A DNA stretch of 64,000 nt, taken from assembly GCA_051362555.1 (NCBI GenBank), contig CM120647.1, positions 13,864,651-13,928,650 of the forward strand, written 5' to 3'. The position numbers and the translations under genes were made by a program. The DNA is from Lingula anatina. Its lineage: Eukaryota > Animalia > Brachiopoda. Shown piece after piece: positions 11,337-11,683 of this stretch. Below the pieces are notes generated by a model. That model ran no database searches, had not been told where the DNA came from, and saw nothing but the letters and a program-made list of their open reading frames with translations. Each line of letters starts with the position of its first letter. The first letter of the stretch is position 1.

Positions 11337-11683
11337 CTAACCAGAACCAAATCCTGAACCAGATCCTGACCCAGACCCAGATCCTGACCCAGATTCTGAA
11401 CCAGACCCAGATCCTGACCCAGATCCAGATCCTGAACCAGACCCAGATCCTGAACCAGAACCAGATCCTGAACCAGATCCTGACCCAGACCCAGATCCTG
11501 AACCAGACCCAGATCCTGAACCAGAACCAGAACCAGAATCTTCTGCAGCTTCCCAGTCACAGCTACCAGAAACTTCATTGTAAACGTAGTTAGGGGTGGT
11601 GCAATTTTTCAAACCGGGGTAGTATTGTGATCTACCAGAAAGCTGAAGATCTGCACACTGTCCAGCTGTTGCATTATTCATAC
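11337..11683 (-). CDS. Terminal exon: diverged exon-E paralog plus 66-aa Ser-Gly tail
   Basis: Acceptor gttttag|GT (phase 1); [48 protein letters not shown] then (SG)n...FGSG, TAG at 11337-11339. Confidence 0.9.

Follow-up and report, generated by a model that had tools for sequence, protein, structure and literature searches.

A putative glycosaminoglycan-bearing Ser-Gly tail encoded at the end of a giant repeat gene of Lingula anatina

Results

Organization of the repeat gene

The window analyzed here, i.e., the entire 64-kb stretch of Lingula anatina DNA, carries on its minus strand an array of 16 units, each composed of the exons E-F-G-H-I-J-D, and this array goes on past the end of the window (Table 1). 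One unit comprises 1,101 coding nucleotides (E, 132; F, 108; G, 33; H, 209; I, 268; J, 224; D, 127), or 367 codons, and extends over about 2.5 kb with its introns. Joined in silico, the exons of the window yield an open frame of 5,987 residues without internal stop from 113 exons; these numbers and the number of units are lower bounds, the frame running off the window and the N-terminus lying outside it. All the introns are of the GT-AG type (112/112). The acceptor of the EGF exon is weak, with a purine-rich GAG (14186-14190), and it constitutes the sole in-frame choice in all 16 units.

The in-window protein contains 291 cysteines and 148 N-glycosylation sequons (about nine sequons per unit), and no transmembrane segment was found within it (best 19-residue Kyte-Doolittle mean of 1.15). 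Each unit encodes one EGF-like domain and two unclassified Cys-rich domains. The EGF domains, the cysteines, and the sequons point to an extracellular protein. Exon F is of phase 1-1, which leaves the frame intact upon skipping, and this EGF exon may be skipped or alternatively spliced.

Table 1. Features of the terminal region and of the last complete unit (exons named as in the text)
Feature	Positions	Strand	Remarks
Candidate polyadenylation signal	11240..11245	-	ATTAAA
Remnant hexamers after the stop	11316..11336	-	Out of frame; TAA in the original frame
Stop codon	11337..11339	-	TAG, arisen within the repeat
(Ser-Gly)n tail	11340..11537	-	66 aa, 31 SG; DNA is a hexamer/18-nt minisatellite
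Acidic motif	11538..11552	-	EAAED; adjoins the start of the tail
Exon T, 5' part	11552..11683	-	Diverged copy of exon E without the donor of E; reads into the tail
Terminal exon D variant	12126..12252	-	Phase-1 donor at 12126
Exon J, last unit	12497..12720	-	Begins the second Cys-rich domain
Exon I, last unit	12880..13147	-	Second half of the first Cys-rich domain; matches Lingula XP_013418787
Exon H, last unit	13431..13639	-	
Exon G	13792..13824	-	Linker of 11 codons
Exon F	14078..14185	-	EGF-like domain (PF00008, 23.4 bits, cut-off 21.5)
Exon E, last unit	14337..14468	-	
Array of 16 units	12126..63747	-	E-F-G-H-I-J-D; goes on past the window end

The internal units appear homogenized in their exons and introns alike: pairwise diversity ranges from 0 to 0.0095 for exons and from 0.0005 to 0.0074 for introns. 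Insertions of 0.9-3.8 kb are present in four introns and in none of the exons. Two neighboring units share the same intron insertion of 3.9 kb (51566-55465 and 57877-61777), indicating that it was duplicated together with the unit, and single insertions are located at 32143-35250 and 37190-38265. In each unit, the intron between H and I (e.g., 13233-13325) contains an (AT)n and poly-A microsatellite with an intron length of 215-294 bp; this microsatellite varies beside near-identical flanks and offers a clock for the homogenization of the units.

Homologs and predicted structures

The sole named match of exon I was the L. anatina entry XP_013418787 (one of ten candidates), a fragment of 290 residues without the tail. 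Its first 247 residues match the spliced exons H-I-J-D of an internal unit (235/247 identical, same junctions), and it ends at a D exon of the internal type before joining amidase sequence. In model P0002 (UPI00078A414E), which is longer, the unit exons are preceded by a hydrophobic segment at the N-terminus, a region rich in Thr, and an SEA domain; the model is interleaved with amidase sequence and therefore unreliable. Public Lingula models, in which exons of one unit are fused to amidase and SEA-mucin sequence, are likely collapsed or chimeric annotations. Searched against 1.84 billion representatives, exon I yielded four matches, two of them real (P0001 and P0003) and two repetitive and spurious; besides the Lingula model, the only real match is an unnamed fragment of 85 residues (57%). 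At the sequence level, the unit domains match nothing outside Lingula except this fragment.

For the terminal exon, no homolog was found among six candidates (0/6), and a second search was likewise empty. A scan of metagenomes matched 3 of 276 stretches, each a chance match of 22 residues. At E ≤ 1, the Pfam search of this exon returned a sub-threshold CFAP143 alone and no kinship to the serglycin family. The Cys-rich domains of the unit found no match in Pfam, no usable match in the ESM Atlas on two occasions, and a best E of 0.68 among PDB sequences. A chitin-binding (peritrophin-A/CBM14) reading of exons E and T was rejected: they contain three cysteines instead of six and have no Pfam match at E ≤ 1. 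The two Cys-rich domains, of about 160 residues each, resemble one another globally (P = 0.011) and not significantly in local alignment. Two AlphaFold models were of low confidence (pLDDT 39), with a helix-strand-strand-helix-strand order predicted in one, and a fold search was uninformative, giving a best Z of 7.5 on KH/RbfA-like folds without listing SEA. The similarity of the unit domains to the SEA domain of P0002 was not significant, and PF01390 was not matched. A SEA-like fold for these domains would be a guess from one low-confidence model.

The terminal exon and its Ser-Gly tail

The gene ends with a variant D exon followed by exon T (11683-11337, minus strand), which codes for 44 residues that include cysteines, the motif EAAED, a tail of 66 residues, and a TAG stop. 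The 5' part of exon T differs from the unit exon E at 50 of 132 nucleotides and keeps three cysteines; the terminal exon D differs from internal D exons at 32 of 127. Phase 1 is shared by the donor of terminal D (12126) and the acceptor of exon T (11683). When terminal D and the 5' part of T were pooled and compared with the internal copies, synonymous sites were found far more divergent than non-synonymous sites (pS = 0.645 and pN = 0.224; Fisher P = 1e-8; dN/dS ~0.18). This contrast indicates that terminal D and exon T are under purifying selection as protein. An earlier note on this DNA had proposed that the tail exon is coding and in frame with exon D, and the matching phases, the purifying selection, and the open spliced frame agree with this proposal in silico. 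No more unit exons were found downstream of exon T within the 64-kb window; beyond the candidate ATTAAA, the next AATAAA lies at 10687.

The tail consists of 32 Ser, 32 Gly, one Glu, and one Phe, and its Ser-Gly run is not due to chance: 10,000 base shuffles gave at most seven SG dipeptides in any frame, and 66-residue windows outside the tail hold at most three (six frames, whole 64 kb). It lacks Lys and Arg and is almost uncharged. Acidic residues are limited to EAAED upstream and one internal Glu, with no acidic flank on the C-terminal side; EAAED directly precedes the run and is a novelty of exon T compared with exon E. The description given in the earlier note was accurate on several points: EAAED followed by about 30 SG dipeptides in 66 residues and a stop (31 were counted), a C-terminus devoid of a transmembrane or GPI-like hydrophobic stretch (best 19-residue Kyte-Doolittle mean of -0.56 near this end), and mixed codons (TCT 21, TCA 11, GGT 12, GGA 11, and GGG 9).

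From these mixed codons it had also been argued that the dipeptide appears more constrained than the DNA, which the repeat structure makes suggestive at most. Three hexamers, present in 11, 10, and 9 copies, make up the tail DNA together with three singletons. In all 11 of its occurrences, TCA is joined to GGA or GAA, the hexamers show lag-3 periodicity, and adjacent TCA units are absent (P = 0.006). These patterns indicate that 18-nt slippage generated the repeat, with codon changes linked as hexamers rather than independently synonymous. The repeat extends about four hexamers 3' of TAG. Counted by events, the founding changes comprise three synonymous and two non-synonymous ones (P = 0.21). 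The changes that spread were all synonymous (3/3; 1/27 by chance, P = 0.037; counted post hoc). It is the slippage, the result by events, and the repeat running past the stop that weaken the argument from constraint. Tail length is probably labile, as the run would have grown by slippage of hexamers in a copy of exon E outside the homogenization of the internal units. The other frames of the repeat (plus strand, Pro-Asp/Glu; minus strand, Trp-Phe or Leu-Val) are open and were discarded as they have no splice context.

Neighboring elements, RNA reads, and shell proteome

A Ty3/gypsy-type LTR retroelement occupies positions 2119-7121, with identical direct repeats of 102 bp (2119-2220 and 7020-7121) and an intact gag-pol ORF of 1,385 residues (2569-6726, minus strand) encoding reverse transcriptase, RNase H, and integrase. 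It looks recently inserted, and RNA reads from it were present in 4/4 runs. A convergent multi-exon gene (7250-9994, plus strand) has an EETLH motif and no Pfam or NCBIfam match; by resemblance, we take it to be possibly a zinc metallopeptidase. A diverged paralog of this gene is expressed in run X5.

In four RNA runs (X1, X2, X4, and X7), no read was found over exons D, J, and I (11820-13220), and an organism control was absent there. In four others (X3, X5, X8, and X9), covering 2400-11345, the organism was present, with reads matching the neighboring retroelement at 99%, and no clear transcript of the Ser-Gly tail gene was seen. The reads on the 3' flank in the runs holding the organism showed 6-15 differences and loose ends, suggesting that they derive from a diverged dispersed repeat elsewhere. 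A dispersed repeat lies in this flank at about 10880-11190, and related copies from other loci occur in X8 and X9. The entry XP_013418787 was absent from the shell-proteome supplement of 2026 (PMC13425148), in which a control identifier was present. A miss would be easy because the tail lacks Lys and Arg and the database entry is a tail-less fragment.

Discussion

Comparison with known proteins

The earlier note called the tail serglycin-like. The likeness holds for the consecutive Ser-Gly run, with 31 SG in 66 residues, as an analogy and not as homology. Among mammalian proteoglycans, an uninterrupted Ser-Gly run is described as unique to serglycin (PMC4859157), of which every repeat serine is a potential glycosaminoglycan site (PMC3888995). 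However, serglycin is a granule protein of 158 residues encoded by three exons with eight repeats inside its chain, whereas the Lingula protein comprises at least 5,987 residues from 113 or more exons and carries its 31 pairs at the extreme C-terminus. Its acids lie only upstream and once inside the run, and no sequence kinship was found. By analogy, the Lingula tail would work like the acceptor run of serglycin, yet the protein is no serglycin.

Invertebrate proteoglycan cores are reported to be lineage-specific and SG-rich (PMC2063922). The C. elegans cores CPG-1 to CPG-9 likewise present many SG sites beside Cys-rich domains, and CPG-4 has 35 sites, most of them within its C-terminal half (PMC2063922). 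They differ in that their sites are interspersed with acids (E/D-G/A-S-G) and their cores measure 7-84 kDa (PMC2063922); the peritrophin-A domains of the CPG-1/2 type were not detected in the Lingula protein by Pfam. On this analogy, the Lingula protein appears closer in kind to these independently evolved cores than to serglycin.

Other parallels concern the architecture of the gene. In abalone VERL, a series of near-identical internal units goes with an end unit that has diverged, and spidroin genes are said to be homogenized tandem repeats of the same type. The Lingula gene shares this organization, but its unit consists of seven exons, its introns are homogenized too, and its domains are unrelated. 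Gly/Ser low-complexity sequence beside Cys-rich repeats also characterizes the molluscan shell proteins lustrin A, MSP-1, and aspein; the GS region of lustrin A lies inside the chain and does not follow a strict dipeptide pattern. No homology to these proteins was found, and XP_013418787 is missing from the shell supplement (PMC13425148). SEA/EGF mucin-type matrix proteins resemble the Lingula unit in that an EGF domain would stand beside Cys-bonded domains of about 160 residues, as modeled. A true SEA domain and a hydrophobic N-terminal segment precede unit exons in the amidase-chimeric P0002, whereas the unit domains have no SEA match and their models reach a pLDDT of 39.

A candidate cluster of glycosaminoglycan sites

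The Ser-Gly tail is likely a cluster of glycosaminoglycan attachment sites. Human XT1 requires Gly or Ala directly after the serine; it favors neighboring Gly and acids at positions -4 to -2 and is otherwise lax, acting where sites are accessible (PMC5992326). The tail's second serine agrees with this preference, having Glu at -4, Asp at -3, and Gly at -1 and +1. The view that Ser-Gly beside acidic residues forms xylosyltransferase acceptor sites is consistent with these published preferences for the G-S-G that follows the acidic patch. Most of the run lies farther from acids: with a distance of eight residues to an acid, taken from PMC2063922, 11 of the 31 SG sites are near Asp or Glu and 20 are beyond it. 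With those 20 distant sites, "dense" amounts to a guess for the brush that had been proposed. The strict C. elegans motif E/D-G/A-S-G does not occur in the tail, and motifs alone are reported not to predict the occupancy of glycosaminoglycan sites (PMC8418075, PMC13038410). Attachment fits the chondroitin-sulfate-type chemistry of Lingula: the shell is reported to contain a glycosaminoglycan gel or glycosaminoglycan-rich layer (PMC13425148, PMC9057340), and 30 CHST3-type sulfotransferases are described in the genome, with expression in larva and mantle (PMC4595640). A Lingula peptide xylosyltransferase is not named in the literature searched or in the searched supplement of PMC4595640.

Our preferred reading, to which we give somewhat better than even chances, is a giant glycoprotein, either secreted or tethered to the membrane, whose end bears a glycosaminoglycan brush; with such chains on its tail, the predicted extracellular protein would be a giant proteoglycan. 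The tail would have been born by hexamer slippage within an exon-E copy that escaped the homogenization of the internal units. The protein would enter the secretory pathway through a signal peptide or type II anchor located beyond the window, and its body would fold into a row of disulfide-bonded domains, about three to each unit, with heavy N-glycosylation. In the Golgi, the unstructured G-S-G run would be xylosylated on a subset of serines, chiefly near EAAED and the internal Glu, after which the linker and then chondroitin- or heparan-type chains would be assembled and sulfated. Repetitive Ser-Gly reportedly favors heparan sulfate, according to the title of one paper. At the free C-terminal end, the polyanionic brush may hold water and cations and space or cross-link a gel, for which shell matrix, mucus, egg coat, or connective tissue are candidates.

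Alternatively, the tail could be a flexible Gly-Ser end, unmodified or barely modified, that grew by slippage, is tolerated, and has no role beyond that of an entropic or elastic spacer. This is unlikely in our view, but several observations speak for it: the three hexamers are arranged in 18-nt blocks, the repeat extends past a stop born inside it, the synonymous excess is not significant by events, the tail is almost uncharged, and Gly-rich low-complexity disordered domains are reported as common in lophotrochozoan matrix proteins (PMC4897951). However, a terminal tail, as opposed to an elastic domain inside the chain, joins nothing; XT1 accepts G-S-G well, where accessible, even with single acids replaced (PMC5992326); and the acidic EAAED appeared in exon T, relative to exon E, directly before the run. 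The serines might also be phosphorylated by a secretory kinase, and the resulting phosphoserine-glycine polyanion would bind calcium or apatite. The reasoning on S-x-E and S-x-pS derives from the phosphorylation motif of Fam20C: the two-residue spacing of the serines would permit S-x-pS propagation, but the terminal exon has no S-x-E priming site and its lone Glu replaces Gly at +1. The mineral of Lingula is apatite and shell spectra report protein-linked phosphate (PMC9057340), whereas the absence of XP_013418787 from the shell supplement (PMC13425148) leaves no link to the shell; we regard this reading as improbable.

We attach an equally low probability to exon T not being the protein end in use, be it that the gene is silent, that the last unit is decayed, or that splicing differs. 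Supporting reads are absent from eight of the nine RNA runs listed, over the intervals given above, and the NCBI fragment has amidase sequence joined to its last D exon, which is of the internal type. Such a fate is at odds with a dN/dS of ~0.18 on terminal D and T, with the matching phases, with 113 exons that are free of stops and frameshifts while four introns carry insertions, and with the lack of any unit exon farther downstream.

Significance for Lingula

The Ser-Gly tail is real, its glycosaminoglycan chemistry appears plausible, and its carrier is an undescribed giant repeat gene. Neither this gene nor a proteoglycan core from a brachiopod was described in the openly accessible articles covered by our literature search. 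The gene brings to light a predicted giant protein whose domains find no match outside Lingula except one unnamed fragment. If the tail proved unmodified, an unusual homogenized gene of seven-exon repeats would remain. The glycosaminoglycan gel of lingulid shells is thought to confer elasticity and to guide apatite growth, and no named core protein for it was found in our literature search. It is quite unlikely, but conceivable, that the gene encodes a lingulid-specific mega-proteoglycan of more than 650 kDa, built of homogenized repeats of EGF and undescribed Cys-rich domains and hidden by assembly collapse, whose serglycin-type brush was born independently from a minisatellite and which forms the core of the elastic glycosaminoglycan gel of the phosphatic or embryonic shell. 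The gene constitutes a concrete candidate core in a phylum without a named one and, if the glycosaminoglycan reading is true, would present a serglycin-type acceptor produced by DNA slippage.
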